DNA of 64,000 bases from an uncultured Eubacteriales bacterium (GTDB lineage: Bacteria; Acidobacteriota; Aminicenantia; Aminicenantales; Aminicenantaceae): positions 19,901 to 83,900 of the forward strand of contig CAYSCS010000101.1 of assembly GCA_964429695.1 (NCBI GenBank), in the 5' to 3' direction. The translations under genes and the position numbers were made by a program. Under the pieces are notes generated by a model. That model was not told where the DNA came from and did not search any database. It saw only the letters and a list, made by a program, of their open reading frames with translations. Positions 38,120-56,258 of this stretch are shown here, in pieces. Numbering within the stretch: the first letter of the stretch is position 1; the number at the start of each line of letters is the position of its first letter.

Positions 38120-38720
38120 GACTCTTGCAGAAGATTTTTATAAAGGACTTTGGCAAGAGAACCCTATCTTCCGTCAGTTGCTCGGAATGTGCCCCACCCT
38201 TGCTGTGACCAATGCCGTAATCAATGGGATTGCTATGGGATTGGCAGTCGCCTTTGTGTTAATCTTCAGCTCAGTGATTATTTCTTCCCTAAAAAAAATC
38301 TTTCCACCTCAAGTTAGAATTGCAAGTTACATTGTCATCATCGCCACTTTCGTCACCATCGCCGATCGCTTTCTTCAAGCCTTCTTCCCTTCGATTTCTA
38401 AAAGCCTGGGACCATACGTCCCTCTTATAGTAGTAAATTGCATCATACTTGCTCGACAAGAGGCATTCTCTTCAAAGAACCCTGTCGGTCGCTCTTTCAT
38501 CGATGCCTTGGGTATGAGCGCCGGGTTTATGCTTGGACTTCTCATCCTCAGCTCTATAAGAGAAATCCTGGGTTCAGGGACTTTTCTGGGCTATCAAGTC
38601 CTGGGGAGCTGGTTTAAACCCTGGTTGATCATGATCCTTCCTCCCGGAGCCTTCATGACTCTGGGCATCCTCCTTGCCCTTGCCATTCAAATTGAGAAAA
38701 AGTTAAAGTCAAGGAGTTAA
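38109..38720 (+). CDS. rnfE: Rnf complex subunit E
   Basis: A polytopic membrane protein carrying 'LLGMCPTLAVTNA', the RnfE/NqrD signature. Confidence 0.9.
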   Translation: MKNRTLAEDFYKGLWQENPIFRQLLGMCPTLAVTNAVINGIAMGLAVAFVLIFSSVIISSLKKIFPPQVRIASYIVIIATFVTIADRFLQAFFPSISKSLGPYVPLIVVNCIILARQEAFSSKNPVGRSFIDALGMSAGFMLGLLILSSIREILGSGTFLGYQVLGSWFKPWLIMILPPGAFMTLGILLALAIQIEKKLKSRS

Positions 38721-38724
38721 AGAA

Positions 38725-39300
38725 GTGGATATCTTCACCATCTTTGTCTCATCCATCTTAATCAACAACTTCGTGCTCCACTACTTCCTTGGAATCTGTC
38801 CTTTTCTTGGGGTGAGTAAAAAACTTGATTCTGCTTTTTCCATGGGTCTTTCTGTAACTTTTGTGATGACCATCACCGCCTCTGTTTCCTGGCTCATAAA
38901 CCACTTGATCCTCATCCCTTACAATCTGGATTACCTCCAGATTGTCTCCTTCATCCTGGTCATCGCCTCGCTTGTTCAGCTGGTTGAAATGTTTATCCGT
39001 AAAATGAGCCCTCCGCTTTACCAGGCAATGGGAATCTACCTCCCCCTGATCACCACGAATTGTTGCATCATGGGTCTTGCCCTCCTCATCGCCCTCAAAG
39101 ATTATGGGTTCATCGAAGCCGTTGTCTTTGGGGTTGGGTCGGGAATTGGCTTTACTCTAGCCATACTGTTGATGGCAGGGATTAGAGAGCAACTTGAAAT
39201 CTCGGACTTACCAGAGCCTCTCAGAGGAGCTTCAATTGCTCTTATCGTTGCAGGAATTATGGCCCTTGGCTTTCTCGGATTTTCGGGAATGATAAAATGA
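38725..39300 (+). CDS. rnfA: Rnf complex subunit A
   Basis: A polytopic membrane protein carrying 'FLGICPFLGVSKK', the RnfA/NqrE signature. Confidence 0.9.
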   Translation: MDIFTIFVSSILINNFVLHYFLGICPFLGVSKKLDSAFSMGLSVTFVMTITASVSWLINHLILIPYNLDYLQIVSFILVIASLVQLVEMFIRKMSPPLYQAMGIYLPLITTNCCIMGLALLIALKDYGFIEAVVFGVGSGIGFTLAILLMAGIREQLEISDLPEPLRGASIALIVAGIMALGFLGFSGMIK

Positions 39301-40106
39301 CGAATCTCCTGGTCCCAATCTTAACCATGGGAGGGCTCGGCCTCCTCTTCTCTGTTGGTCTTGTCTTTGCCTATAAGAAACTCCGGGTAGAGGAAGACCC
39401 CAGGGTGGAAAAAATCGCTGAAATACTCCCTCAGGCAAACTGCGGGGCATGTGGTTTTTCAGGTTGCCGCAATTTTGCCGAAGCAGTGGTAAAAGGGTCT
39501 GCTTCTCCATCCAGCTGTCCTGTTGGAGGAGAACAGGTTGCAAAGCAAATTGCTGAGACCCTCGGTATCTCAGCTGGAGAAGTGATTAAGAAAGTAGCAA
39601 GAATCCATTGTCGGGGCACGTGGCAAGCAGCTAAACCCAGAGGAAATTACGCAGGCATCCCTACCTGCCTTGGAGCTCAGCTAATAGGAGGGAACAAGCT
39701 TTGTAGCTACGGATGTCTGGGCCTCGGCGACTGCGTGAGGGCATGTCTTTTTGACGCCATGTTCATGAATGAAGATGGCCTGCCAGAGGTAAGAGAAGAT
39801 AAATGTACAGCCTGTGGAAAGTGCGTCGAGGCCTGCCCGCGAAACATCATTGAACTCCATCCTCTCTCTCACAAAATAATTGTCTTCTGTCGTTCCAAGG
39901 ATAGAGGGGCTGTGTCAAAAAAAGCGTGTCACAATGCCTGCATTGCCTGCGGAATATGTGCCAGGGCAGCCCCAGAAGCAATCATAATGGAAAACAACCT
40001 TGCCAAAATAATTGATTATAATAAAATTAAAGATGAGCAGGTTCTTGAAATAGAAAAATGTCCAACAGGAGCAATAGGAAGGCTGGAGAAGAGGGATGAA
40101 GGATAA
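39297..40106 (+). CDS. rnfB: Rnf complex subunit B (ferredoxin-type)
   Basis: An N-terminal TM helix is followed by 'CGACGFSGCRNFAEAV' and multiple CxxCxxCxxxCP motifs. Confidence 0.88.
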   Translation: MTNLLVPILTMGGLGLLFSVGLVFAYKKLRVEEDPRVEKIAEILPQANCGACGFSGCRNFAEAVVKGSASPSSCPVGGEQVAKQIAETLGISAGEVIKKVARIHCRGTWQAAKPRGNYAGIPTCLGAQLIGGNKLCSYGCLGLGDCVRACLFDAMFMNEDGLPEVREDKCTACGKCVEACPRNIIELHPLSHKIIVFCRSKDRGAVSKKACHNACIACGICARAAPEAIIMENNLAKIIDYNKIKDEQVLEIEKCPTGAIGRLEKRDEG

Positions 40107-40539
40107 AGCAAAAGTTATAAGCATCGAAGGGGAATTCTCACGGGTAGAAGTCCAATGCCTCTTCACGGCGTGCGAGAGATGCTCAGCACGCAATCTATGC
40201 AGAGGAGATGACCCAGATTCCAGGCTCTTGCTCGTTAAAAATCCTCTTGGGGCAAAACCTGGAGACATGGTGACAATCGAGGTTCCTGAAGACTCTTACA
40301 CTAGAAGTTTAATCTCTATCTTCGGCTTCCTGCTTTTATCTTCTCTTCTGGGAATGGGACTAGGCTTTTTGTCTTCACGGTTGGTTGTTTTTTCTCCCGA
40401 GATATTGAGCATCGCGGGGCTTCTCTCTGGCCTCTTCATCTGTGGCTTTTTACTTTTAAACCGTTTTCGAAAAAAAAACTTACTCACCCTTTACCCTGTT
40501 ATAATTTCAATCTTAAATAAAGGAGAGGACAATGGATAG
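40096..40539 (+). CDS. rseC: RseC/MucC family protein (SoxR-reducing system / sigma-E positive regulator-like), associated with Rnf
   Basis: A Cys-containing N-terminus ('VQCLFTACERCSARNLCRG') is followed by two TM helices. This is the typical RseC arrangement, located after rnf/rsx genes. Confidence 0.7.
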   Translation: MKDKAKVISIEGEFSRVEVQCLFTACERCSARNLCRGDDPDSRLLLVKNPLGAKPGDMVTIEVPEDSYTRSLISIFGFLLLSSLLGMGLGFLSSRLVVFSPEILSIAGLLSGLFICGFLLLNRFRKKNLLTLYPVIISILNKGEDNG

Positions 40540-41266
40540 ACGTTCCTTTCTGGGTTCAATCATCCTTACTCCGCTCTTATCCCATTTTTTAAATGCAGAT
40601 GAGAGACAACCTTCAACTCTCAGCCTCCATTTAATATCCGATTTTCCGCATGATTTTTTGCCCCAGATTCTTTATGACTTAAGAGAGAGAGGTATCAATT
40701 TCGGCCGCAGAGTTTGGTTTCCGGAAAATACTCCTTATAGAATGCAGCTCGAAAAATCGTTTTCTGCTAACGGCTGGGAGGTAGCTAAAAACACCTCAAC
40801 TGCCTCTTTTATCCTCAATCATAATCTCTTAAGCAGAGAAAGCCTTCCCTCCTTTTCCCTTGTTGAAAAGGGAAGGGTGAAAGACATAAGGTCAGGAAAA
40901 CTAATTCATCTCTGGAAAGAAATGGTCAAAAGGAATCCCTCTTCTTCTCTCTTAACCACTGCTACTTTAAAGAAAGGTTTTCCTTCTTTATCTTCAGGAG
41001 AGGAGGCTACCGTATTCTTCATGGGGAGAAAAAGAGCAATTTTATCTCTTAAAATAGACAAGATTTATCTCTTCCGCCATAAGCAACATGAAATCTGTGT
41101 AAAAATTGAGAAAAGGAAGGCATGGGTAGAATCATCTTCCTGCTCCCAAAAAATCTGCTGCCATACCCCTCCTGCCTCCCTTGAGGGAGAGCGCATCATC
41201 TGCGCTCCCAATCATTTCATCCTGGAGATAAACCCCTCTCCTTCAATAGATACATCAGTTGGATAA
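40532..41266 (+). CDS. Hypothetical secreted protein with a C-terminal Cys cluster, embedded in the rnf-apbE operon
   Basis: 244 aa with an N-terminal signal-like 'MDRRSFLGSIILTPLLSHFLNA'. The C-terminus reads 'SSSCSQKICCHTPPAS...ICAPNHF'. It overlaps both neighbouring genes by 8 nt, and no known domain is recognised. Confidence 0.5.
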   Translation: MDRRSFLGSIILTPLLSHFLNADERQPSTLSLHLISDFPHDFLPQILYDLRERGINFGRRVWFPENTPYRMQLEKSFSANGWEVAKNTSTASFILNHNLLSRESLPSFSLVEKGRVKDIRSGKLIHLWKEMVKRNPSSSLLTTATLKKGFPSLSSGEEATVFFMGRKRAILSLKIDKIYLFRHKQHEICVKIEKRKAWVESSSCSQKICCHTPPASLEGERIICAPNHFILEINPSPSIDTSVG

Positions 41267-42203
41267 AAAATCATCTCTCCTTATAGTTTTTTTCCCTTTA
41301 TTCCTTATCATCTTTTATTTATCCTGCAAAAGGGAAGTGGCTTGGCATTCCTCCACCCTTCTTTTTTTCGATACGGTGTGCGAAATTAAACTTCTTTGCA
41401 CTCCTTCTCAATTCAAGAACGGCGAGAAAGTTGTGGGAAATTTGTTTGAGTCGATTGAAAAAGAATTTTCACCAGAATCCTACAACAATTCTTCAGATTC
41501 ACTAATAAAATTATTCAAGATCGCACTCAAGATTCATCATGACTCTCAAGGCTCTTTCGATATTAGTGTCGGAGCTCTTTCGAAGGTCTGGGGCTTTAAG
41601 AATAAAGCATACAGAGTCCCTCATCTCTTTGAGATTGAGGAAACGCTCAAGCATGTGGGAATGGAAAAAATAAAAATAGATGAAAATTCTCTCTGGCTCC
41701 CTGAGGGTATGGAGCTTGACTGGGGAGGAATTGCAAAGGGGTATGCCGTCGACTTGGCTTCTCAAGAACTTAGGAAAAGGGGAATCTTAAATGGATTTAT
41801 AAACGCAGGAGGAGACCTTTTTTGCTGGGGGCAAAACCCTGAGCACAAGCCGTGGAAGATAGGAATTAAACATCCTCGCGAACCTGGTTTTTTAGGTATA
41901 CTCTCGATTTCCAATTTAGGCGCTTCAACAACCGGCGACTACCAGCGCTATTTTGAGGTCAAGGGAAAAAGATATCATCATGTGTTTAATCCATTTACGG
42001 GCTTCCCTTCCTCTTTTTATCAAAGTGTAACGGTAGTCGGACCTGAAACGACGATATGCGACGCTCTTTCTACGGCTCTCTTTGTTTCGCCTGAACAAGA
42101 AAAAATAATCCGCCTCTATCCCGAATATGGAGTGATTATTGTCGATTCGAAGGGAAAACTTAAAACGTTAGGGAAAAAATATCCCTTTTCACCCCTCGGT
42201 TAG
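41259..42203 (+). CDS. apbE: FAD:protein FMN transferase (flavin transferase ApbE)
   Basis: Carries 'DWGGIAKGYAVD', 'GASTTGDYQRYF' and 'TVVGPETTICDALSTALFV', all ApbE signatures. Confidence 0.9.
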   Translation: MDKKSSLLIVFFPLFLIIFYLSCKREVAWHSSTLLFFDTVCEIKLLCTPSQFKNGEKVVGNLFESIEKEFSPESYNNSSDSLIKLFKIALKIHHDSQGSFDISVGALSKVWGFKNKAYRVPHLFEIEETLKHVGMEKIKIDENSLWLPEGMELDWGGIAKGYAVDLASQELRKRGILNGFINAGGDLFCWGQNPEHKPWKIGIKHPREPGFLGILSISNLGASTTGDYQRYFEVKGKRYHHVFNPFTGFPSSFYQSVTVVGPETTICDALSTALFVSPEQEKIIRLYPEYGVIIVDSKGKLKTLGKKYPFSPLG

Positions 42204-43300
42204 ATTTTCATGGGCATTAATACATATAAATACTGAATTTCATCGTCAACTTCTGGCTTCATCATCACGGCACTATTCTCATCTTTAATCTCAACTACAA
42301 CTCTTTCGTTTTTAACTGTATTCAAGAAATCAAGGAGGTATTGAGAATTAAATCCTATTTCCATCTCCTTCCCTTCATAATCTACTTGTATTCTATCATG
42401 AGCTTCTCCCATTTCCGGACTCGAAGAGAAGAGGTCAACTTGTTTTTTTGAGAGGAAAAGTTTAATGCCTTTTGACCTCTCGGATGAAAGAAGAGAAACC
42501 CTTTTTATTGAGCTAGCCATTTCATCTCGAGAAAAAGAAAGCCTATTAGGATTATCCCGCGGCATGACAGCCTCATAATTAGGAAACTTCCCTTCAATCA
42601 TTCTTGAAATTAATGTCTTATTTTTTACCCTGAAAAAAAGATTGTTTTCGTCCAGGTCAAACTCAATATCCTCTCCATCTAGTTTTTTTATTTCTCCCAA
42701 GGTTTTTTTGGAAACTATTCCTCTCAATTCACCTCCTATCTTCAATCCTTCCAGCTCCTTTTTTGTGTACGATAATCTATGGCCATCCGTACTAACCAGC
42801 TCTATCGATTTATCCTTGATTATCATCAACGCGCCGTTTAGATAATATCGCTGCTCTTGAGTAATAGCATAATAAACCCTATCTATCATCTCCTTGACTT
42901 CTTCTAAGGGAAGAGATATTCCTTTCTCAAACCTGGGCTCAGGAATTTGGGGATAGTCTTCATGTGGTAAACACAGGATCTTAAATTCGCTTGCTCCGGA
43001 TGTAATTTCCATTCTCAACCCTTCAATTTCTTTAAAAGTTATCAACTGTCCATCAGGAATTGATCTCACTATTTCAAATATTTTCTTTCCTGAAACCGTC
43101 AATGCCCCTTCATCTTCTATCCTGGCCGGGAAATGGGTTATCATTCCTACTTCAAGGTCTGTACCTACCATCTCAACCTCATCTTTCTTAACTTTCAACA
43201 GAATATTGGCAAGAATGGGCATTGTATTTTTCTTCTCCACTATCCCCTGTAAAATTTGGAGCTCACCTACTATTTCCTCTTTATTGATTGAAAAAATCAT
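42200..43300 (-). CDS. dnaN: DNA polymerase III beta subunit (sliding clamp)
   Basis: 366 aa, beginning 'MIFSINKEEIVGELQILQGIVEKKNTMPILANILLKV'. Confidence 0.95.
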   Translation of the reverse strand: MIFSINKEEIVGELQILQGIVEKKNTMPILANILLKVKKDEVEMVGTDLEVGMITHFPARIEDEGALTVSGKKIFEIVRSIPDGQLITFKEIEGLRMEITSGASEFKILCLPHEDYPQIPEPRFEKGISLPLEEVKEMIDRVYYAITQEQRYYLNGALMIIKDKSIELVSTDGHRLSYTKKELEGLKIGGELRGIVSKKTLGEIKKLDGEDIEFDLDENNLFFRVKNKTLISRMIEGKFPNYEAVMPRDNPNRLSFSRDEMASSIKRVSLLSSERSKGIKLFLSKKQVDLFSSSPEMGEAHDRIQVDYEGKEMEIGFNSQYLLDFLNTVKNERVVVEIKDENSAVMMKPEVDDEIQYLYVLMPMKI

Positions 43301-43418
43301 TTCTTCACCTTTTAAATACTTTTTTCTTATTATATATTTCTTATTATATATGCTTATTATTAAAAATAATAATAAAAATCAAACTAAATGTGGAAATCTA
43401 TCGTAATTTATTTATTCT
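43301..43418. promoter_or_regulatory. AT-rich putative DNA-unwinding element with a DnaA-box-like site, between dnaA and dnaN (oriC candidate, part 2)
   Basis: The stretch is more than 85% A+T, with direct repeats 'cttattatatat' x2 plus 'cttattatta'. The site 'TGTGGAAAT' matches the DnaA-box consensus at 7 of 9 positions. Confidence 0.5.
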
Positions 43419-44750
43419 TCAGTAAATCTGGCTGATCAAACTGTTTATTTCTTTGTTGAATTCCGGGTCTTTAGACCTGAGCTTTTCAATTTTTCTAATG
43501 CTGTGTAAGACTGTTGTGTGATGTTTTCCACCGAATTTTCTACCTATTTCAGGCAGAGAACTTTTACTCAACTCCTTGCACAAATACATGGCAATTTGTC
43601 GGGGAAAAGCAACTTTTGGAGAATTGTTTCTAGATTTCAATTCAGAAAGCTTAATTTTAAATCTATGACAAATCACCTTCTGTATTTTTTCCACAGTCAC
43701 AGAAACTTCTGTTTCATCAAGCAATCCCTTTAAGGCTTCTTTAGCCAGTTCAAGGTCAATTGGTTCTCCTCTTAGAGAGGAAAAGACGATTACTCTCCTT
43801 AAATACCCCTCTAACTCTCTTATGTTCGAATGAACTTTATCTGCAATGTAAAGAGCCACGCTTTCAGGGAGGTTGATTCCTTCTAACTCAGATTTTTTCT
43901 TAAGAATGGCAATTCTTGTCTCAATGTCTGGAGGTTTTAAATCTGCAATCAAACCCCATTCGAATCTTGAACTGAAACGTTCTTCAAGGTTGGGAATCTC
44001 TTTTGGAGGGCAGTCTGAGGAGATGACAATCTGTTTCTGATTATCATAAAGATGGTTAAAGGTGTGAAAAAATTCTTCTTTCGTTCTTTCTCTTCCAGAA
44101 AGGTAGTGGATATCATCCATCAACAGAACATCCACTTCCCTGTACTTTTGTCTGAAATCGAGAATTTTTCCGTATTGAAGATGATTAATTAAATCGTTCA
44201 TAAATTTTTCTGTAGTGATGTAAAGAATTTTGAGACGCTGATTATTTTTCAAAGTCAGGTGGCCAATTGCATTCATTAGATGGGTTTTGCCCAGTCCTGC
44301 ACCTCCGTAAATAAAAAGGGGGTTGTATGACTTAGCCGGGTTTTTTGAGACCGCCAAAGAGGCTGCATGGGCAAACTGATTGCAGGAGCCGACGACGAAA
44401 TTTTCGAAGGTGTAATTGGGATTAAGATTGGGATTTAGAATTGACCCCTGTTTCGAGCGACGCTCAAGGGGGGAGACGCGCATAAATGAACTCGATTTTT
44501 CATCAAATATGTAATGGATATCAAAGACAGCACCAAGAATTTCTTTTGAACAGGAATTGATAAGCTCAGAATAATGGAAGGAAAGCCAATCTTTGAAATA
44601 TGAGTTAGGGACTTTGATGTACAGAACATCCTTTTCTTTTCCTATGTAAGAGGTTGGCTCAAACCAGGTTTCGAAGCTCTGTTGGTCAATTTTTTTCCTT
44701 ATGGCTTCCACAATTTGAAGCCAAATGTTTGATTTTTCCTCAGATTCCAT
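43419..44750 (-). CDS. dnaA: Chromosomal replication initiator protein DnaA
   Basis: Carries AAA+ 'GGAGLGKTHL' and 'LLMDDIHYLSG'. The C-terminal DNA-binding region 'IAMYLCKELSKSSLPEIGRKFGGKHHTTVLHSIRKIE' is present. Confidence 0.95.
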   Translation of the reverse strand: MESEEKSNIWLQIVEAIRKKIDQQSFETWFEPTSYIGKEKDVLYIKVPNSYFKDWLSFHYSELINSCSKEILGAVFDIHYIFDEKSSSFMRVSPLERRSKQGSILNPNLNPNYTFENFVVGSCNQFAHAASLAVSKNPAKSYNPLFIYGGAGLGKTHLMNAIGHLTLKNNQRLKILYITTEKFMNDLINHLQYGKILDFRQKYREVDVLLMDDIHYLSGRERTKEEFFHTFNHLYDNQKQIVISSDCPPKEIPNLEERFSSRFEWGLIADLKPPDIETRIAILKKKSELEGINLPESVALYIADKVHSNIRELEGYLRRVIVFSSLRGEPIDLELAKEALKGLLDETEVSVTVEKIQKVICHRFKIKLSELKSRNNSPKVAFPRQIAMYLCKELSKSSLPEIGRKFGGKHHTTVLHSIRKIEKLRSKDPEFNKEINSLISQIY

Positions 44751-44882: not shown

Positions 44883-47846
44883 TTAAAAATCAAACCCAAT
44901 CCAAAATTTAGTCTCGAAATTACCATAGGAATTGAAATCAAAGGGATTTTTAATGGCTGGCCATTCAAGACGCTTGGCAAATTCAAGATGGACAGGAAGT
45001 CCTAAGAGAAAGAATTCAAATCCATATCCGTAAGAGCCAATGGCTTCTGATTCTCTAAAGAGAGGGGCTCCAGATGAATCTAATCCTTCAAAGGAAATAA
45101 ATTTTGCTGGATAACCTTTTAGCTTAGCTTGAGCAACGTCAAAGAAGAACGTTCCTCTCACAGGGCCTATCTGTCCGATGAGAGTTGAGGCAGAATTTAT
45201 CAAGGGAAACCTTAATTCAAGGTTGGCATACCATCCTTGGTTGGCGATTATGTTGTAGTAATATGAAGAACGGACCTGGTTGTTGCCTCCAAAATAAAAA
45301 ATGTAAGGATTTTTTCCCCAGCTTCCAAAGCCTTCAAATCGAACGGCAAAAATCAAATCAGCCCCAAGATGAAGATAATGTCTCAGGTCCACTTCGAGGC
45401 TAGTGTTATTGAAAAAACTTTCAGCTAGAGGAAGGGCCTGGGAAAAAGTGATCCTAAATGTGTTTCCGCTTACAGGTCCATAATATTTAAACTTAGTGGT
45501 TTCTCCGATCAAAGAGAAATTTAGTAAAAGATGGTTTCCATTCCAGAAGCTGGTAAAGGTTCGCCCCCTGACGAAAAGACTGTGAGTTAGATAAGGATTA
45601 TAGAAATCTTCTTCATAATGATAGAAACCGAGGCTCGCTTCTGTCCTTAAGTATTTGTTAAGTGGGTAATAGGAGCTTATGCTTATTCCTGAAATCTTGC
45701 GAGTTGCAAGAGCATCTTTATAAGTCAGAAAGTTATAGAAATAAGGGTCGTAGTAAGAATATGGTGGATAATAAAAGAGGGTATATTGGAAGACACTGGC
45801 AAGATACTGAAGCCTTTTTTTCTGGTTGATATAAGCAAAATAGTAAGAACGAAAGCTCCTCACTTGATAAGCCATGATGTAGAAGTTATGGTCACCTAAA
45901 AGGTCAGTAAAGGAAAGGGCAGAGCCTCCGTAGATGGAACCGTCTGTAGAGACAATGGTATCAACTGGGGGGCGTGAAGCGAGGTAAAGTTTCCCCAGCC
46001 CCTTATAATGTTCTATTTTGTTTTCATCGATTTCAAAGGAGAGGATTGGCTCAAACCTTTTGAATTGCTCTTCTTGCTTTCGTTCACTAAAAATAATTTT
46101 CTCCTCGATTTTTCCTTCGAGTTCACTTTGATAAATCTGGAAGGAACTCTTGTTAAAAGAAGAAAACACGATTTTCTGAGGTTCCCGCGGAAGAGGAATG
46201 GGGAAAAAGTTTCCGCTACGTACATCGGTGTAGCGCTTTAATTCACCGCTTTGTATATTTATAGAATAAATGTTGAACGCACCCCTTTTGTCTGAGGAGA
46301 AGAAGATCTCTTTTGAATCTGAGGCAAAATGGGGAGCTATGGCATTTTCATCTCCAAAGGTCAGCTGTTTCTTCTGCTTGAGGTCTTCAGCGGGGGAAAT
46401 AAAAAGCTTGTCATAGGCGTCGATACGAATGGTATAGGCGATTAATTTTCCATCCGGAGAAATATTAGGGGCCTTTTCAAAAAGGTCATCCTGAGTTAAA
46501 TTGGTAAATTCTTGGGTTAAGAGGTTGACTTTGAAGATGTCGTATATTCCATTATCAAAGGCAGTAAAGAGAAGCTCTTCCCTGTCAGGGAAAAAACAGG
46601 GGGAAGCGGGCTGATCAAAAGGAATCGGAATTTTTTTTAGAGTCTTTCCTGTTAAAGGGCTCAGGATAAAAAGAGAATGTTTCCTTCCTGATCGAGCAAA
46701 GAAGACAATTCTATCTCCATCCGGAGACCAGGCAATGTCTTTCCCCATCGAAGGATCGATCTCATATTTTATGCGTTCATATTTGATGGTATAACCCTTT
46801 GTGATGTTCTTAATAACTGAGCCGTCTTTGGTTGAAACAAGGATTATATCTAGGTCATTATCTTTTACATTTAGAGCGAGAGCCGCCACTATGTCTCCTG
46901 AAGGCGAGACTGCGTGGGAGAGAGAAAAATAATAGGGATTTTGAGGGAAAACCGGTCCGATGGGGAAGCTGTAATCTTCCGGGCTTTCTCTGTCGAGGAA
47001 ATCTCTGTGTTTCAGACGAAGATATTTTTTGAATTCATGATTGAATTCCTTAGTTGTCATATTAAATGCTTTTTTAATCGGGTCTTTTCTCCCCACCCGA
47101 GGCATTGTTTTTAGTGCTTGCCAGAGCTCGTGGATTCCACTTTTTCCATACTTATGCTCGATGAAATCAAAGATGGCGTGCCCGAAGTCATAGTCAGGAG
47201 GACGGGGAAGAGGATAAGAAGACACAAGTTCCCCCGACTCGTTTAGCTCAGGAATTCTATCGTTTAACACAGCATCTCTTACAATTAATGAAGACCAGGA
47301 AGACCAATTCTGGGTATTATACTCGCAGAAGCCTTCCATTATCCACCCCGGAGGTTGAGTCAGGGCATAAAGAACACCACCTGGGCTTCCCCAAAGAAGG
47401 TCATATTCGAAGATGTGAGTCAACTCATGGATGATTAGCTCTTGAATCTCATCAGGAGCCATGTCTCCCTGGATGGCTATGCGATAGAGGACTGGCTCTG
47501 CCACCCCCAGAACTCCTTCTGGAAGCTGGAAAAGATTTGTCTGCTCAAAATCTGTGGAAGTTTTGTAATAAATGAGAGGCACAGGCGCCGAGAGTTCATG
47601 TTTTATGTTTTGACTGATGCGCAGATAGGCACTTTCTGCCATTGCAGAAAGAATTTTAAGCACCCAGGGAGAATCCATGTAGTAGTGGATGTCGAAATGT
47701 TCTGTTTTGTAGTGTTTCCACTTAAAATTTTCATAGATGACCTTATTTTTTCCATAATAAGGGAAATAGATCACTTGGGATAGCCCGAAGATGCTCGAAA
47801 GAATCCAAAGGGTGATGGATAAGGCCAATTTTTTGTGATTTTTCAT
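44883..47846 (-). CDS. Large outer-membrane protein: an N-terminal HExxH (gluzincin-like) domain, a central PD40/TolB-type beta-propeller and a C-terminal Omp85-superfamily beta-barrel
   Basis: There is an N-terminal signal/TM 'LALSITLWILSSIFGL'. 'IIHELTHIFEYD' with a downstream 'IMEGFCEY' forms an HExxH+E arrangement. PD40 repeats include 'WSPDGDRIVFFARS' and 'ISPDGKLIAYT'. The C-terminal barrel shows a BamA-like loop-6 'GPVRGTFFFD' and the terminal 'KFWIGFDF'. Confidence 0.7.
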   Translation of the reverse strand: MKNHKKLALSITLWILSSIFGLSQVIYFPYYGKNKVIYENFKWKHYKTEHFDIHYYMDSPWVLKILSAMAESAYLRISQNIKHELSAPVPLIYYKTSTDFEQTNLFQLPEGVLGVAEPVLYRIAIQGDMAPDEIQELIIHELTHIFEYDLLWGSPGGVLYALTQPPGWIMEGFCEYNTQNWSSWSSLIVRDAVLNDRIPELNESGELVSSYPLPRPPDYDFGHAIFDFIEHKYGKSGIHELWQALKTMPRVGRKDPIKKAFNMTTKEFNHEFKKYLRLKHRDFLDRESPEDYSFPIGPVFPQNPYYFSLSHAVSPSGDIVAALALNVKDNDLDIILVSTKDGSVIKNITKGYTIKYERIKYEIDPSMGKDIAWSPDGDRIVFFARSGRKHSLFILSPLTGKTLKKIPIPFDQPASPCFFPDREELLFTAFDNGIYDIFKVNLLTQEFTNLTQDDLFEKAPNISPDGKLIAYTIRIDAYDKLFISPAEDLKQKKQLTFGDENAIAPHFASDSKEIFFSSDKRGAFNIYSINIQSGELKRYTDVRSGNFFPIPLPREPQKIVFSSFNKSSFQIYQSELEGKIEEKIIFSERKQEEQFKRFEPILSFEIDENKIEHYKGLGKLYLASRPPVDTIVSTDGSIYGGSALSFTDLLGDHNFYIMAYQVRSFRSYYFAYINQKKRLQYLASVFQYTLFYYPPYSYYDPYFYNFLTYKDALATRKISGISISSYYPLNKYLRTEASLGFYHYEEDFYNPYLTHSLFVRGRTFTSFWNGNHLLLNFSLIGETTKFKYYGPVSGNTFRITFSQALPLAESFFNNTSLEVDLRHYLHLGADLIFAVRFEGFGSWGKNPYIFYFGGNNQVRSSYYYNIIANQGWYANLELRFPLINSASTLIGQIGPVRGTFFFDVAQAKLKGYPAKFISFEGLDSSGAPLFRESEAIGSYGYGFEFFLLGLPVHLEFAKRLEWPAIKNPFDFNSYGNFETKFWIGFDF

Positions 47847-47859
47847 AAGTTTTCTTTCG

Positions 47860-48567
47860 TCATTTATATATCAAATACCTTTCTTCAACCATACTTTCGC
47901 CAAAAAAATTGCGGAAAAGCTTAGTTTTTACTTTACGGATTAAGTCAAAAAAAGCAAAATAAGCGGTCTGGTTTGGGTTCCTGTAAGATTGGGTTTCCTT
48001 GAAGTTTTTTTTGAATAAAATTTTTCCGGATTCTGGATCGACGAGGTAGAAGTCGACACTCAGAGAGTAGAATTTTCGCTCCGCAAGTCCTTTTTCGGGA
48101 GGAAAGGGCTCCTCATATCTACTTGGAGGTCTTTTTTCTATGAGTGCCTTCCTTATTTCCTCGCTGTAGGATGCAGTTCCCGTAATCAACAGAGAATCTT
48201 TACTTCCCAAGGAAGCATTTTTCCAGAACCCTTCATCCTCAAGGACTTCTTCTTTTTCAATCATAATCTCTCTTGAAATAACCTCTCCTTCAAACTTACG
48301 CTTGAGTTCTGTCTCTAAGAAACTAACGATTTCAGAACTGAGGTTGATGTCTTTTGTCTCTTTTTTCACATAGAAATTGGTGAGAATGAGCATTTCATAG
48401 GCATCAAGGTCAATGACCTTTTTCCCAGGAAGCTCGAGCTTCAATTTCAAGTACGAACCAGACGAGCAGGAAAAGAAAAAAACAGCGAGTCCCAAAAAAA
48501 GAAGCTTAATTCTCGACTTCTTTTTCCATGCTTTGAAGATATTTTTTAAAACTTTCATAATTAGCAA
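47860..48567 (-). CDS. Hypothetical lipoprotein
   Basis: Signal with lipobox 'LAVFFFSCSSG'. No recognised domain. It lies 13 nt upstream of the 987-aa gene. Confidence 0.5.
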   Translation of the reverse strand: MLIMKVLKNIFKAWKKKSRIKLLFLGLAVFFFSCSSGSYLKLKLELPGKKVIDLDAYEMLILTNFYVKKETKDINLSSEIVSFLETELKRKFEGEVISREIMIEKEEVLEDEGFWKNASLGSKDSLLITGTASYSEEIRKALIEKRPPSRYEEPFPPEKGLAERKFYSLSVDFYLVDPESGKILFKKNFKETQSYRNPNQTAYFAFFDLIRKVKTKLFRNFFGESMVEERYLIYK

Positions 48568-48859
48568 GAATGTATTTATTACCAGGGCTTATTTTTAAGG
48601 CTTCTTTATATTCCTTCTCGGCTTCTTCCCAAAGGCCTTTTTTTTCATAAGCAACTGCCAAATTATTGTGGGCTGCAGCAGAAGTAGGGTTTTCAAGGAG
48701 AACTTTTTTCCAGCGAAAAATTGCCTCCTCCCAGAGATCCTTCTCTGCCGCAAAAATGCCAAACTGAAGTTGATGGTCAGAAAGGGAGCGGCTGCATCCG
48801 CTCTGGAAAAAGAGGACGGCAAGGGAAATTCCTGAAAAAAGGAAAAAATTTCTTTTCAT
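48506..48859 (-). CDS. TPR-repeat lipoprotein
   Basis: Signal with lipobox 'FFQSGCSRS'. TPR-like 'AAAHNNLAVAYEKKGLWEEAEKEYKEALKISPGNKYILANY' follows. Confidence 0.6.
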   Translation of the reverse strand: MKRNFFLFSGISLAVLFFQSGCSRSLSDHQLQFGIFAAEKDLWEEAIFRWKKVLLENPTSAAAHNNLAVAYEKKGLWEEAEKEYKEALKISPGNKYILANYESFKKYLQSMEKEVEN

Positions 48860-51425: not shown

Positions 51426-52016
51426 TCAAGAGCCCTCCCGAAGAAGATTCTCTCTGTTGAGAATCCAATTGACCGCTTCCAAGATGTTTATGGCAACGTG
51501 AGCAGGACTTACTTTTAGCTGGTTTAAGGAGGCTCGAGTTTTTTCCCCGTAACCAGTGAGGACTAGTATCGAGGAGGCATTTATGTTCAGGCCAAAGAGG
51601 ATGTCTTCTACTTTATCTCCAATTACATAAGATGCTTTGAGGTCGATGTTGAGGTCTTGTGCGGCTCGAAGAGCCATCCCATATTTTGGTTTACGACAGG
51701 CGCAATCTTTCCTGTAACGTGGATCAGAGGAAAAGAGGTAGTGGGGGCAGTAGTAGAATTTGTCTAAGTGGGCCTTATGCCTTGAAAAAGAGGCTGAAAT
51801 TCTCTTATGTAAATCGGTTAGGGCTTCTTCTGAAATCAAACCTCTTCCTATGCCTGATTGGTTGGTGGCGACGATGGCTAGAAAGCCGGCCGAGTTTATT
51901 TTCCTTACGGCTTCGAAACTGAAGGGAAAAATCTTTATCATCTGAAAAGAGGAAGAATATCCTACTTCCTCATTTAGAGTCCCATCTCTATCTAAAAAGA
52001 CAGCTCTTTTTCTCAT
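51426..52016 (-). CDS. gmhB: D-glycero-D-manno-heptose-1,7-bisphosphate 7-phosphatase (HAD-IIIA)
   Basis: Carries 'AVFLDRDGTLN' and 'VATNQSGIGRG'. Confidence 0.85.
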   Translation of the reverse strand: MRKRAVFLDRDGTLNEEVGYSSSFQMIKIFPFSFEAVRKINSAGFLAIVATNQSGIGRGLISEEALTDLHKRISASFSRHKAHLDKFYYCPHYLFSSDPRYRKDCACRKPKYGMALRAAQDLNIDLKASYVIGDKVEDILFGLNINASSILVLTGYGEKTRASLNQLKVSPAHVAINILEAVNWILNRENLLREGS

Positions 52017-53017
52017 CTAAGAAACTCCTCCCCTGCTGCAAAGACCTCCTCGACAGAGATTAGCTTCATGCACTGGTGTTCAAACGGGCATTCTCTATAA
52101 CTACAGGGGGAGCAAGCAACCTCGTGTCTTATCACCTTAGCAGGTTTCTGAAAGGGGCCTGTGACTTCTGGATTTGTGGGACCAAAGATGGCCACTACAG
52201 GGATTTTAAGGGAATTTGCCAGGTGCATGGAGCCTGAATCGTTGGTGACGAAAAGAGAAGCATGGCTTATTAAACCCGCCAAGAGGAGGAGGTCGGTTTG
52301 CCCCGCGAAGTTCAATGGTTTTTTAGGCAGCAAAGAGGAGATGAATGAAGACAGCTCTTTTTCTTGTTCTGAGCCGATGATGAGGATTTCAGCAGAGAAG
52401 CATTTTTCAAACATCTTTGCCACCTCTGCAAACCTTTCTGCAGGCCATCTTTTCGATGACCCGTAGGCTGCACCAGGATTGAGGACTATGAGCGGTTTAG
52501 AAAGGTCTGCTCCCATAGAAATAAGCGCTTCTTCTGCTCGCATCTTTTGTTCTTGAGGAAGAGGGAAGTGAAGTGAGGGGGTAATTGGATGAAGACCAAG
52601 CGCTGAAAGAAGATTCAGATAGTAGTGAAGCTGATGATGAGTCTTTTCTAGGTTTTTGGGAGAAACAGCCCTTGTTAGGAGGATTGCCCTGCCATCTGTG
52701 GCATATCCCCATCTTTCGGGTATTTTTGCAAGGAAAAAGAGAAGTGCAGAAGAAAAGGAATTGGTGAGCAGAAAGCCGAGGTCAAATTCGTGCTCTTTAA
52801 TTTTCCGCGATGCAATTCTTGAATTCTTAAAATCAGTCTTGTGAGGGAGAGTGAGGATTCCTTTTATATTTTCTAAGGTCAAAAAGAGGTCCTTTACCCA
52901 TTCTTTGGCAATAATCCATATTTCTGATTGAGGGAAATTCTGGCTTATACTCTGGATGGTAGGGAAAGAAAGAATTGAATCTCCAATCCAGTTCGGGACT
53001 CTAATTGCAATTTTCAC
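52013..53017 (-). CDS. ADP-heptose:LPS heptosyltransferase (glycosyltransferase family 9)
   Basis: Carries 'MKIAIRVPNWIGDSILSFPTI' (GT9 N-terminus) and 'TNDSGSMHLANSL'. Confidence 0.8.
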   Translation of the reverse strand: MKIAIRVPNWIGDSILSFPTIQSISQNFPQSEIWIIAKEWVKDLFLTLENIKGILTLPHKTDFKNSRIASRKIKEHEFDLGFLLTNSFSSALLFFLAKIPERWGYATDGRAILLTRAVSPKNLEKTHHQLHYYLNLLSALGLHPITPSLHFPLPQEQKMRAEEALISMGADLSKPLIVLNPGAAYGSSKRWPAERFAEVAKMFEKCFSAEILIIGSEQEKELSSFISSLLPKKPLNFAGQTDLLLLAGLISHASLFVTNDSGSMHLANSLKIPVVAIFGPTNPEVTGPFQKPAKVIRHEVACSPCSYRECPFEHQCMKLISVEEVFAAGEEFLR

Positions 53018-53139: not shown

Positions 53140-53421
53140 TTAATTTTGGGAGGAGGCTTCCGATTTCTTACTCTTTTCTTTATCCTGAGGCTCTTTTTCA
53201 GTAGTTTTGTTTTCCTTGCTGGCCTCCTTTTCGGGAATCTTTTTCTGGGCGTAGTCTGTTATGTACCAACCGCTTCCTTTGAACTGTATCGCAGGAGCAG
53301 AAAGGAGTTTGATTATTGGTCCCCCACAGTGGATACAATTTTTCAGGTTATTTTCATTAAACTTCTGGATGACTTCAAAATGGGCTCCACATTTTTTGCA
53401 TTTGTACTCATATATTGGCAT
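53140..53421 (-). CDS. FmdB family zinc-ribbon protein
   Basis: 'MPIYEYKCKKCGAHFEVIQKF...CIHCGG' is followed by a Lys/Glu-rich tail. The start is taken at the internal Met, because the longer ORF would overlap the upstream gene. Confidence 0.75.
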   Translation of the reverse strand: MPIYEYKCKKCGAHFEVIQKFNENNLKNCIHCGGPIIKLLSAPAIQFKGSGWYITDYAQKKIPEKEASKENKTTEKEPQDKEKSKKSEASSQN

Positions 53422-53485
53422 TTTTTCCTCTCCTGAATGAAGATTTATTATACCAAATAAATCTTCCCCTTCAAGAGGGGGGAAA

Positions 53486-54946
53486 TTAATCGAAGACCTG
53501 TGCCTCGAACACGAATATTTCTGCTCCTTTCTTCCAGGCATCAGGAGGAAGACCGGCCTTTAGGCAGGCTTGTCTCAGGAACATGTCTCTTGACCAGTTG
53601 TTTTCGACTGGGACCTGAGGGAGGAGGATCCCCTTTTTCTCTCCCTCAACGATTAAGAGGCCGTGTTTGCCGACTTCGATTTGAGAAGGGTCTTCAATTT
53701 TTTTAAGAGTTGAGAGTACAGAAATCTCTATTTCAAGGTTTTTGAGCTCCTCTTGGCTAAGAGGGGGAAACCTCGGGTCTTTGCAAGCAGCAAATATAGC
53801 AGCCCGGATCACTGTTTCGTATAAAGGCATTATTGGTTCCACGAATCCTATGCATCCTCTTAAAGAGTGATGCTTTTTAAGGGTAACGAAGGCACCCTTT
53901 TTCTCGAATAGATTAGAGTTTTGGGGAGTATATTCAAAGATTGTTTTTTCTATTACAATTTTTTCTATGGCTTTGCGGGCAATTTGAAGTAGCTCCTTTT
54001 TTTCTTCTTGAGAGAGCTCTTTCTCTTCATCTTTTTGCTCAAGATAAATTGCCGCCGAGAGATACCCTACTACACCTGATTCAGGCCCACCTGCCTGTGA
54101 GGAATCAGCGTAGTGAAGGAGCTCAACGCGGGCTTCTCCTCGACTTTTTGCATACAACAAAGAAGCCACAACCCCTCCTCCTCCACACATGATGCCCTCT
54201 CCCCTCTCAATTTTTCTTTGCAGTGATTCGGTATCAAGAGCCTTGATTAGATTTGCAGTCTGATTATCTATTTCGTTTGCTTCTTTTTTCGGGAGATAAT
54301 GGGAGAGGTCTGTAGAGGCAACAAGCAATGCTTTTTTGTCCTTGAGAGCTTGGGTGAGCGCCTTAGCGAGAGAATTTACAGTATTTCTTGAGGGGGCTCC
54401 CATGAGAATGGGGACTATTTTCGCTTCGGGCAGGACTTTCTGGATGAAAGGAATTTGAACTTCTATCGAATGTTCTTCTTTATGGGCTTGAGGGATATAT
54501 TTGAAGCCTGAAAGAAATGAAATCTTGGACGCTAACTCCTCATCTATGTAGGCGACACCGAGCGGTGTTCTATAACCGCCGCGAGGATATATAGAGCATC
54601 CCTGGAAACCGTATCTGTGAGAGGGAGCGATGATGATGACAACCTCATAGTCCCGGCCTTGGACCTGTTTATAACCAAAGGCAGCAACTTGTCCAGAATA
54701 AATGTATCCCGCATGGGGGACGATGAGAGCCAGTATTTTTTCAGGAAGAGTAGTGCTCTTTTTGGCCTTCTCCAAAAATATGTCTATTTGTCGAGAAAGA
54801 ATTTCTGTTCTTTGGTCATAAAATTTCCCGGCCCAGACAGGTTCTCTTATTTCTTGAGCTATACACCAAGCTCCACAGAGAAAGAGAAGAAATAAAAGAA
54901 AGTTTAACTTTTTATTCATGAGACCCTCTTTAGATTTTATCTTCAA
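53486..54946 (-). CDS. Fusion of a Memo-like (AmmeMemoRadiSam system protein B) domain and an AMMECR1 (system protein A) domain, with an N-terminal signal peptide
   Basis: The Memo-like part shows 'WAGKFY' and 'LIVPHAGYIYSGQVAAFGYKQV', cf. MEMO1 'PHAGYTYCGSCAAHAYKQV'. The AMMECR1 part shows 'KKGAFVTLKKHHSLRGCIGFVEP'. The N-terminus 'KKLNFLLFLLFLCGAWCIAQE' looks like a Sec signal. Confidence 0.8.
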   Translation of the reverse strand: MKIKSKEGLMNKKLNFLLFLLFLCGAWCIAQEIREPVWAGKFYDQRTEILSRQIDIFLEKAKKSTTLPEKILALIVPHAGYIYSGQVAAFGYKQVQGRDYEVVIIIAPSHRYGFQGCSIYPRGGYRTPLGVAYIDEELASKISFLSGFKYIPQAHKEEHSIEVQIPFIQKVLPEAKIVPILMGAPSRNTVNSLAKALTQALKDKKALLVASTDLSHYLPKKEANEIDNQTANLIKALDTESLQRKIERGEGIMCGGGGVVASLLYAKSRGEARVELLHYADSSQAGGPESGVVGYLSAAIYLEQKDEEKELSQEEKKELLQIARKAIEKIVIEKTIFEYTPQNSNLFEKKGAFVTLKKHHSLRGCIGFVEPIMPLYETVIRAAIFAACKDPRFPPLSQEELKNLEIEISVLSTLKKIEDPSQIEVGKHGLLIVEGEKKGILLPQVPVENNWSRDMFLRQACLKAGLPPDAWKKGAEIFVFEAQVFD

Positions 54947-55163: not shown

Positions 55164-55214
55164 GGAGAAAAGTATCTTTTGAAACATTTTTTTTCATAGT
55201 GATTGAGGCATGAT

Positions 55215-55556
55215 ATGAATTGGGGGGTGTATGGACTCCTCGTCGTCCTTGCTCTGTTCATTCTTCTTCTTGTTTTTTACCCCAATCTTTCCTGTTTTGG
55301 AAGGAGAATAAGGTCCCCTTTTTATCCTTTGTTTCGAAAAAAAGCCAGAACCAAGCGAAAGGTAGAGGATTACGGATTTCGCCTTGTTGAAGGAGAAGAA
55401 AGAAAGACGATTTCACTTGAGAAAAAGCCTCAGAACGTGAGCAAAAGAGTGAAGGTCGAGGATTACGGTTTCAAACTAGTCGAAAAGGAGAAGAATTCAA
55501 AGATAGAAAAAAAAGCAGGGGATGAAAATAAGGGTAGAAAGACATCTTCCGCTTAG
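55215..55556 (+). CDS. Hypothetical membrane-anchored protein with tandem 'VEDYGF(R/K)LVE' repeats
   Basis: An N-terminal TM 'GVYGLLVVLALFILLLVF' is present. Two near-identical repeats occur, 'KRKVEDYGFRLVEGEERK' and 'KRVKVEDYGFKLVEKEKN'. The ATG at 55215 is preferred over the TTG at 55203. Confidence 0.4.
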   Translation: MNWGVYGLLVVLALFILLLVFYPNLSCFGRRIRSPFYPLFRKKARTKRKVEDYGFRLVEGEERKTISLEKKPQNVSKRVKVEDYGFKLVEKEKNSKIEKKAGDENKGRKTSSA

Positions 55557-56258
55557 ATGAGGAAATGGGAATCAAAGGCAAATTCTCGATTGTTTCTCTG
55601 TTTCTTTCTCTATTTTTTGATGATTGCCTGCCATATTTCGAAAATAGAACTTCCCTCCCCAGGTGAAAAGATTGAAAGCATCGAAGGGTATGCTTCTCTT
55701 CAAATTTATGGAACAAAGCGCTCGACAAAATCAAGATTCACCTTCTACTTCGATCTGCCCTCACGCGGATATGTTGAAGCCTCAGATTTTTTAGGAAGAA
55801 CACTCTATAAGATTATCTTCTCTAAAGAAGAGGCCTTTTTCATCCTGCCTAGAGAAAAGATGTTCTGTAAGGGGCGAGAGGAAGAAATCATCTTTAATTT
55901 GATAAGGTTAAGGTTAACTTTAGAGGAAATTTTCAATCTGTTGAGCGGGGAATGGAAAAGCATTCACAACCAGAGTAGCGAAGAGAGTAGAGAATGGGTG
56001 CTTGGAGAGGATGAAAAGGGGAGAATCGTCTCAGGCATAAAAGGAGACCTTGGCTTCGAAGTCAAGGAATTTTTTGGGAAAACTAATTTTGTGAAGATGC
56101 TTGTTTTTTACTCAGGAGAAAACAGAGGGAGGATGAAAGTCCTTTCCTTAAGCCTCAATAAGCCATTGAGTAAGCCTATATTTTCGCTCGATTTTTTAAA
56201 GACTTACGAGATGAAAACGTGGGATGAAATAGAGGAGATTTTGGGGATTGAGAATTAG
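55557..56258 (+). CDS. Putative outer-membrane lipoprotein LolB-like protein
   Basis: A signal plus lipobox-like 'LMIACH' is present. The size (233 aa) and the position immediately upstream of ispE, as in the conserved lolB-ispE-prs context, support the call. Sequence similarity was not verifiable by eye. Confidence 0.4.
   Translation: MRKWESKANSRLFLCFFLYFLMIACHISKIELPSPGEKIESIEGYASLQIYGTKRSTKSRFTFYFDLPSRGYVEASDFLGRTLYKIIFSKEEAFFILPREKMFCKGREEEIIFNLIRLRLTLEEIFNLLSGEWKSIHNQSSEESREWVLGEDEKGRIVSGIKGDLGFEVKEFFGKTNFVKMLVFYSGENRGRMKVLSLSLNKPLSKPIFSLDFLKTYEMKTWDEIEEILGIEN

Follow-up and report, generated by a model that had tools for sequence, protein, structure and literature searches.

A probably periplasmic Memo-AMMECR1 fusion of Aminicenantes without a linked radical-SAM gene, and the large family of signal-bearing fusions around it

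Why would two components of the three-gene AmmeMemoRadiSam system (A, TIGR04335; B, TIGR04336; radical S-adenosylmethionine (SAM) enzyme, hereafter rSAM, TIGR04337) be joined in a single protein that begins with an export signal and is encoded apart from the third? The question is raised by a minus-strand gene in a 64,000-nt stretch of an uncultured Aminicenantaceae bacterium (GenBank contig CAYSCS010000101.1, positions 19,901–83,900; hereafter the window, whose first letter is position 1 of all coordinates given without a locus name), which encodes a fusion of a Memo and an AMMECR1 domain behind a hydrophobic N-terminus. Conserved from archaea to humans, MEMO1 and AMMECR1 have been linked to cancer-cell motility and an X-linked developmental syndrome; to our knowledge, neither has an agreed biochemical activity. 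We consider it likely that the window gene is a core gene whose product is exported by the Sec pathway, is cleaved by signal peptidase I (SPase I), belongs to a very large, little-studied exported family and carries out metal chemistry on a substrate accessible from the periplasm.

The answer depends on where the protein begins. In the list of open reading frames (ORFs), the gene lies within a minus-strand ORF at 53486–54946, which opens with a TTG at 54946 and gives the 486 aa of the preliminary description. This TTG was rejected as the start, as it has no Shine-Dalgarno (SD)-like motif. We prefer the ATG at 54919, because an SD-like AGAGGG (54924–54929 (−), read from the sequence) lies 5 nt upstream of it and the homologues begin at an equivalent M-[RK]-K-K. 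The resulting coding sequence (53486–54919 (−), stop codon 53486–53488; from the ORF list, Pfam and NCBIfam) yields a product of 477 aa with the N-terminus MNKKLNFLLF, so that the fusion protein described earlier is real and only its length needs correcting. The peptides quoted for it (HAGYIYSGQVAAFGYKQV, LRGCIGFVEP and KKLNFLLFLLFLCGAWCIAQE) were all found in the ORF translation, and an identical protein is present in public data (P0001).

Since the longest ORF begins at a TTG, some uncertainty attaches to the start, and the signal could in principle be an artefact of a wrong start codon on an ordinary cytoplasmic fusion. We give this explanation practically no credence: no ATG occurs in frame after the hydrophobic segment and ahead of the Memo domain, the SD motif stands ahead of the ATG at 54919, and the signal pattern set out below recurs in nearly all close homologues despite their diverging sequence. 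A true start downstream of the hydrophobic segment is thus not what the gene presents.

The signal peptide occupies residues 1–21 (54857–54919 (−); MNKKLNFLLFLLFLCGAWCIA, followed by QE) and is of the SPase I type, with an n-region MNKK, an h-region LNFLLFLLFLCGAW of about 14 residues and a c-region CIA. The n-region is positive, the h-region falls within the range of 7–15 residues, and small residues occupy positions −3 and −1. The 120 best database homologues (58–65% identity) are all fusions of ~477 aa and belong to Candidatus Aminicenantes where named. For 91 aligned full-length Aminicenantes homologues, pairwise identity was 31% in residues 2–21 compared with 66% in the mature part, mean hydropathy over residues 5–18 was +2.4, and every sequence carried at least one K or R within residues 2–6; Gln22, the predicted +1 residue, was 98% conserved. 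The same n/h/c pattern was found in 116 of 119 classifiable Aminicenantes homologues, and the other three look like N-terminally truncated gene calls. Because the pattern is kept while the sequence diverges, we regard the signal peptide as genuine, which agrees with the Sec-type signal or anchor originally proposed. Judged by its sequence, the window protein is exported or at least oriented towards the outside of the cytoplasm.

Two other forms of membrane attachment were considered. A lipoprotein reading (signal peptidase II) was rejected: FL and AW precede the two cysteines of the signal region, no [LVI][ASTVI][GAS]C lipobox is present, and the poor conservation of both Cys (column identities 0.32 and 0.18) makes a lipobox implausible in this protein. 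PROSITE-style lipoboxes occur in 5 of 120 Aminicenantes homologues compared with 32 of 149 diverse representatives of the wider family. The hydrophobic segment might instead remain uncleaved as a signal-anchor, so that the protein would stay attached to the inner membrane and expose both domains to the periplasm. Together with the c-region, the hydrophobic stretch is about 17 residues long, at the limit for a transmembrane helix; some homologues carry Pro at −1 (LWP|QG), a poor residue for SPase I, and many relatives are lipoproteins and hence membrane-tethered anyway. The signal of the window protein, however, ends in a favourable C-I-A|Q site, where positions −3 and −1 hold small residues, its total of 21 residues matches the usual length of cleaved Gram-negative signals, and the 98% conservation of Gln at +1 suggests a defined mature N-terminus. 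We therefore hold an anchor to be unlikely. As a side observation, the codon for Gln22 lies at 54854–54856, and because the residue after the predicted cleavage site is Gln in almost all Aminicenantes homologues, the mature N-terminus could cyclise to pyroglutamate.

Behind the signal, profile searches recognised both domains far above their cut-offs. The Memo domain (residues 27–289, 54053–54841 (−)) matched PF01875 with 223.7 bits (E 3.4e-66, cut-off 27), covering profile positions 2–268 of 269, and TIGR04336 (AmmeMemoSam_B) with 264.1 bits (cut-off 26). It is followed by a charged inter-domain linker between the two Pfam envelopes (residues 290–310, 53990–54052 (−)) and by the AMMECR1 domain (residues 311–476, 53492–53989 (−)), which matched PF01871 with 192.4 bits (E 5.4e-57, cut-off 25) and TIGR04335 (AmmeMemoSam_A) with 191.2 bits (cut-off 99). 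The hidden Markov model runs thereby confirm the order given in the preliminary description, including the Memo-like nature of the N-terminal half. The Memo ligands H69, H101, D204, H207 and C245 correspond to His49, His81, Asp189, His192 and Cys244 of human MEMO1, whose motifs PHAGY, PSH, SSDxxH and CG align with the fusion, and all five are invariant columns in an alignment of 40 diverse fusions. In the same alignment, the AMMECR1 motif LRGCIG (L353-R354-G355-C356-I357-G358 in the window protein) is invariant or nearly so; the domain also contains DPRF and LLPQV.

An AlphaFold (AF2) model of the fusion, built on 40 homologues, reached a mean predicted local distance difference test (pLDDT) score of 94.5 and a predicted template modelling (TM) score of 0.74. 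It shows a lone N-terminal helix (residues 2–20), the Memo domain, a linker of lower confidence (pLDDT ~72 in residues 291–300) and the AMMECR1 domain. Sequence matches in the PDB were human MEMO1 (3BCZ, 7KQ8, 7L5C) for the Memo part and 1VAJ (2.7e-40), 1ZQ7 and 1WSC for the AMMECR1 part. Foldseek superposed the model on MEMO1 (7L5C, Cu-bound; 7KQ8, Fe-bound; 3BCZ) with a TM score of 0.83. The window protein thus shares with MEMO1 the fold, 26–27% identity and the H/H/D/H/C metal site, whereas MEMO1 is a cytosolic, single-domain eukaryotic protein without signal peptide or AMMECR1. Likewise, the archaeal proteins PH0010 (1VAJ), MM0484 (1ZQ7) and ST0229 (1WSC) share LRGCIG and 40–44% identity, with a root-mean-square deviation of 1.3 Å and a TM score of 0.78 to 1VAJ, but they are stand-alone cytoplasmic proteins. 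LigB-type (class III) extradiol dioxygenases are distant fold relatives of the Memo part (Foldseek E 1e-8 to 1e-6, 12–17% identity). Membership of the window protein in the LigB family was rejected, with PF02900 scoring 19.6 bits against a threshold of 26.3 and a metal site that includes a Cys, as in Memo.

Is an exported fusion an oddity of this lineage? An exhaustive search over 50%-identity cluster representatives retrieved 20,566 relatives of the fusion at E ≤ 1e-3 and 3,443 at E ≤ 1e-30. The best 150 representatives (39–61% identity) are nearly all fusions of 450–550 aa. An N-terminal hydrophobic signal was present in 117 of the 142 that could be classified (~82%), and the remaining 25 begin directly at the Memo domain. 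Among the 117 signal-bearing representatives, 32 carry a PROSITE-style lipobox, which makes sense only in an extracytoplasmic protein. Because ~82% of the related fusions, from many diderm phyla, bear a signal or lipoprotein signal, the exported fusion is common rather than odd. With the same architecture also in 116 of 119 Aminicenantes homologues, the earlier view of the window protein as an unusual variant has to be given up. Such proteins already bear the name 'AmmeMemoRadiSam system protein B/A' in annotation pipelines.

To place the gene in its genomic setting, a scan of one genome per species yielded 80 loci, and two loci for P0026 brought the set to 82. The 80 loci span Desulfobacterota, Nitrospirota, Omnitrophota, Zixibacteria, Acidobacteriota, Planctomycetota, KSB1, Calditrichota, Bacteroidota, Fibrobacterota, Kiritimatiellae and others. 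Two of the loci have unusual gene structures. One, on the complete chromosome OY763407.1 of a metagenome-assembled genome (MAG), encodes an 801-aa rSAM-Memo-AMMECR1 triple fusion without a signal peptide (L060:9005–11410), the opposite extreme in which the entire system forms one cytoplasmic polypeptide. The contig of the other carries a tandem pair of full-length Memo-AMMECR1 fusion genes (L034:2623–4320 and L034:4203–5840).

The lack of a neighbouring rSAM gene, first claimed for approximately 5 kb on either side of the fusion, was borne out over a much longer distance. A CxxxCxxC scan of all window ORFs of at least 120 aa gave only three, encoding a poly-ferredoxin, an RnfB-like protein and a YceD protein, none of them an rSAM. 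Searching the 64-kb window by tblastn with three TIGR04337 rSAMs likewise returned nothing (best E 0.88). A contig with the same genes extends past the right end of the window, and its next 10 kb encode MlaD, RadA, a PIN/TRAM protein, IspD, IspF, a class-I tRNA synthetase and a SpoU methylase, with no rSAM, so a partner just outside the window was not found there either. The fusion is therefore flanked by ~53 kb and 19 kb without an rSAM on its two sides. Nor was an rSAM found within 10 kb of the fusion in four other Aminicenantes contigs. Measured against the three-gene AmmeMemoRadiSam system, the window protein thus retains both non-rSAM components with their conserved residues intact; it differs in that A and B are fused behind a Sec signal and that no TIGR04337 gene occurs in the window or in the 10 kb past its right end.

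This separation is not a general companion of export. Across the 82 loci, TIGR04337 enzymes make up 42 of the 56 neighbouring CxxxCxxC ORFs. In the fetched flanks, a TIGR04337 rSAM lies within 10 kb, usually directly adjacent, in 38 of 60 loci with a signal-bearing fusion compared with 4 of 21 loci with a signal-less one. In other phyla, exported fusions are thus the ones that most often adjoin an rSAM, and export does not go along with rSAM absence. Loci with no rSAM in the fetched flanks are common (40 of 82).

Many of the linked rSAMs themselves bear export signals. Among the 38 encoded beside signal-bearing fusions, 23 begin with a twin-arginine (Tat) motif followed by a hydrophobic stretch, for example MMDRRTFIKISSCSAAG in L036, LDRRSFLQCALASGAALG in L019 and SKRDFIKK in Bacteroidota; five have a Sec-like hydrophobic N-terminus and ten have neither. 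Export signals are thereby found on 28 of 38 rSAMs beside signal-bearing fusions versus 0 of 4 beside signal-less ones (Fisher p = 0.009). The Tat motif recurs in 106 of 120 homologues of the KSB1 rSAM (P0270–P0389), and the Nitrospirota type (324 aa) has none. Loci with a Tat-type start include L014:1778–3241, L019:8626–9879, L036:8878–9978, L046:13989–15122, L077:12459–13595 and others. We know of no supply of SAM or low-potential reductants in the periplasm, and a Tat-exported rSAM would thus be unexpected.

Further genes recur in these cassettes. A polytopic membrane protein of 700–850 aa with a Spermine_synth domain (PF01564, 9e-10) occurs in 24 loci of several phyla, exclusively with signal-bearing fusions (L046:11555–13969, L025:4571–6819, L007:1300–3411 and 21 others), and looks like a fourth cassette component. 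The SpeE-like fold family binds SAM-type cofactors, and the membrane protein is a candidate for linking the Tat-exported rSAM to a supply of SAM and electrons. A DUF362 (PF04015) protein with a Tat signal is a recurrent neighbour in six loci from Acidobacteriota, KSB1 and a Desulfarculaceae MAG (L014:975–1991, L019:7590–8600, L036:7877–8881, L047:4719–5765, L077:11374–12459 and L010:11346–12401), with a Tat-like N-terminus where inspected (L014, L077). The typical order is DUF362, rSAM, fusion and membrane protein (L014, L019), and in Bacteroidota it is fusion, membrane protein and rSAM.

Exported cassettes that combine a Tat-signal rSAM with the SpeE-like protein (L019, L036, L046) were seen in Acidobacteriota, KSB1, Bacteroidota, Nitrospirota, Omnitrophota and others. 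Their fusions resemble the window protein in signal, Memo, AMMECR1 and conserved residues (32–46% identity), while the window gene has no adjacent rSAM, SpeE-like membrane protein or Tat-DUF362 protein; none of these partners occurs in the window. A DUF362-like ORF at 14446–15333 (+), with a weak match to the Npun_F2552 family, was tried as a remnant of such a cassette and treated as unrelated, lying 38 kb away with a weak tblastn match (E 3e-8) and beside a ferredoxin-like gene. It overlaps the start of the ORF at 15314–16906 (+), which encodes a 530-aa protein with multiple 4Fe-4S domains.

Does the window fusion nevertheless depend on an rSAM encoded elsewhere? The system could be dispersed but complete, with a distant TIGR04337 rSAM, perhaps accompanied by a SpeE-like protein; such an rSAM could, for example, act on the substrate or on the fusion itself ahead of export, a parallel being the Sec-exported sulfatases that are matured by the rSAM enzyme anSME. 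The phylogeny is compatible with this. Neighbour joining of 75 fusions gave an Aminicenantes clade made up of the window protein, L001 and L003, then L004 and L016; its sister is L007, a Nitrospiraceae locus in which the genes for membrane protein, rSAM and fusion follow one another. Since rSAM-linked and rSAM-unlinked loci are interspersed over the tree, linkage has been lost or dispersed repeatedly. Nor do the unlinked proteins look altered: rSAM-linked fusions have 69 positions with a conservation of at least 90%, unlinked fusions conserve every one of these to the same degree, and the window protein matches the consensus throughout the set. Nothing in its sequence suggests decay or changed chemistry. 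When the neighbours from the 80 loci were clustered all against all, no partner emerged that recurs only at rSAM-unlinked loci.

A shared compartment does not seem to be needed either, because ten loci pair a signal-bearing fusion with a signal-less and hence cytoplasmic rSAM (L007, L051, L053, L061, L067, L069, L070, L071, L075 and L076, including Prevotella and a Nitrospiraceae MAG). In these, the two proteins would occupy different compartments, which fits an rSAM whose target, either the substrate or the fusion protein, is modified ahead of export. Against a dispersed system stand the rSAM-free span at the window locus and in the four other Aminicenantes contigs, together with the fact that eukaryotes possess Memo and AMMECR1 but lack this rSAM. 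Searches for homologues that started from the rSAMs of KSB1 (L036) and of L007 also returned no Aminicenantes protein in their top 120, which consisted of KSB1/Calditrichota or Nitrospirota only; this is a weak argument, as the lists were filled by the queries' own phyla. On balance, we regard a dispersed but complete system as a serious contender that falls somewhat short of an even chance.

The chromosomal setting bears on what kind of gene this is. Downstream of the fusion, in the same orientation, lie a 93-aa FmdB-family CxxC...CxxC zinc ribbon (53140–53421 (−), exactly 64 nt from the fusion; CKKC and CIHC; TIGR02605 68.6 bits versus 31.3, PF09723 (Zn_ribbon_8) 56.4 bits versus 34.4, E 2.9e-15), a GT9 heptosyltransferase II (52013–53017 (−); TIGR02195 230 bits, PF01075) and a HAD-IIIA phosphatase (51426–52016 (−); TIGR01662 and TIGR01656 above cut-off), followed by RelA/SpoT. 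The FmdB and GT9 genes were correctly recognised before, but what had been called gmhB is only GmhB-like, as it scores just below the cut-offs of the GmhB equivalog models. Overall, one side of the fusion reads Zn_ribbon_8, GT9, HAD, RelA, further genes, TPR, Tricorn-like and DnaA; the other reads a small membrane protein, a lipoprotein-like ORF, IspE, Prs, L25 (ctc), Pth, S6, S18, L9, DnaB and MlaE/F/D. Because this order recurs without change in CP070825.1, a complete genome whose fusion is 63% identical, and in three other contigs, the fusion behaves as a vertically inherited core gene of Aminicenantes within a conserved block near the replication origin.

Such conserved order invites the idea that the fusion acts with FmdB, GT9 and the GmhB-like phosphatase in modifying the core heptose of lipopolysaccharide (LPS). 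The genes are co-directional, they stay together throughout Aminicenantes, and a periplasmic location would be compatible. However, the entire 20-kb block, including relA, rpmB and dnaA, is equally conserved, which makes the synteny generic. Among the 82 loci, FmdB occurs in four (adjoining the fusion in three, L001, L003 and L004, all of the Aminicenantes-like clade), GT9 in three and GmhB in three. Counting all loci in which FmdB adjoins the fusion adds only L083, L085 and L086, again Aminicenantes-like. As none of these genes neighbours the fusion outside that clade, we read their arrangement as clade-specific synteny, reject a functional tie of the fusion to FmdB, GT9 and GmhB, and drop the suggestion that FmdB and GT9 are conserved partners of exported fusions; FmdB in particular is probably not tied to the fusion in function. 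Consensus scans also place putative signals between the genes: a terminator-like GC hairpin with a T-rich tail at 53466–53480 (−), immediately after the fusion stop codon, a promoter-like site for fmdB that overlaps it (53447–53474) and another ahead of the GT9 gene. With the hairpin directly 3' of the stop codon, these hint that the fusion gene may form its own transcription unit. Altogether, a role in LPS core-heptose modification appears highly improbable.

These results lead back to the reading we prefer, that of a Sec-exported, probably cleaved periplasmic core-gene product. The gene sits in a housekeeping and envelope-biogenesis block, between ispE-prs-ctc-pth on one side and fmdB, the rfaF-like gene, the gmhB-like gene and relA on the other, with mlaEFD and dnaA nearby, and export would bring an N-terminal Memo domain with a complete metal site and a C-terminal AMMECR1 domain with its conserved Cys motif into the periplasm. 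There, the protein would perform the same metal-dependent chemistry as its rSAM-linked relatives, presumably with Fe or Cu at the Memo site and the AMMECR1 Cys. In Aminicenantes and several related lineages, the rSAM and membrane-protein partners are not linked to the fusion gene. The fusion may then work without an rSAM, as eukaryotic Memo and AMMECR1 do, since eukaryotes have both without a TIGR04337 rSAM, or it may work with an unlinked one. Since the fusion family is exported, the substrate should be reachable from the periplasm, and may be a membrane lipid, an isoprenoid or another envelope component rather than a nucleotide or tRNA.

Several points weigh against this reading. R and K occupy positions +4 and +5 of the predicted mature end (QGIRK) in most homologues, which is slightly unfavourable for Sec export and weakens a topology prediction from charge bias. 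The presence of envelope genes nearby may mean no more than that this part of the chromosome, close to the origin, is a conserved core region. The rSAM-free result covers the fusion locus and its flanks. Finally, we know of no substrate or activity for any AMMECR1 protein, and Memo chemistry is disputed, so that the functional step is argued from location alone.

A bolder version would make the window gene an rSAM-unlinked, possibly rSAM-independent branch of an extracytoplasmic AmmeMemoRadiSam pathway, in which, across many diderm phyla, a fusion exported by Sec or as a lipoprotein, a Tat-exported rSAM and the polytopic SpeE-like protein would act jointly on an envelope component. We advance this only tentatively and think it doubtful as it stands. 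If it were true, Memo and AMMECR1 would ancestrally have acted on a membrane or envelope molecule and not on a nucleotide, and radical-SAM chemistry would take place outside the cytoplasm. Export of the rSAM, if real, would by itself challenge the assumption that such chemistry is confined to the cytoplasm.

Among the accessible papers mentioning AmmeMemoRadiSam, we found nothing on its function. This literature, which did not include Burroughs et al. 2019, contained no description of a Tat-signal rSAM, of AMMECR1 biochemistry, or of an extracytoplasmic fusion subfamily or exported cassette. The contexts of Memo, AMMECR1 and rSAM have reportedly been tied, in the work just named, to modification of nucleotide bases and of isoprenoids. 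An exported enzyme would fit the lipid and isoprenoid side of that proposal better.

The interest of these observations lies mostly at the level of the family and less in the window locus itself. The Aminicenantes gene is an ordinary family member; what makes it valuable is that it offers a natural example of a fusion kept as a core gene with no rSAM linked to it. For the family as a whole, the findings suggest that Memo and AMMECR1 domains can act outside the cytoplasm. An exported, fused family narrows the range of substrates to a lipid, isoprenoid, peptide, metal or other envelope component and makes tRNA or nucleotides unlikely. It also contains tractable genetic hosts, for example among Bacteroidota (including Prevotella) and Desulfobacterota.

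The surroundings of the fusion gene hold a few further features. Two ORFs run divergently from it, directly upstream of ispE-prs-ctc-pth, and both are conserved in the Aminicenantes contigs; their products have no Pfam or NCBIfam match. The first (55203–55556 (+)) encodes a 117-aa membrane protein with a repeated VEDYGF[RK]LVE motif. The second (55557–56258 (+)) encodes a 233-aa lipoprotein-like protein that, by position, takes the place of lolB in the lolB-ispE-prs operon of E. coli. On the other side of the fusion, dnaN and dnaA (42200–44750 (−)) place the window near the chromosomal origin. Beyond them, a run of six to eight co-directional ORFs at 35218–42203 (+) includes an RnfB-like protein (PF04060 and Fer4, 39297–40106), which suggests an Rnf cluster. 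Finally, a 987-aa signal-bearing protein with PD40/Tricorn-like repeats (44883–47846 (−)) is preceded by a TPR lipoprotein (48506–48859) and a 235-aa ORF without a family match (47860–48567), and this trio is kept in all Aminicenantes contigs examined.

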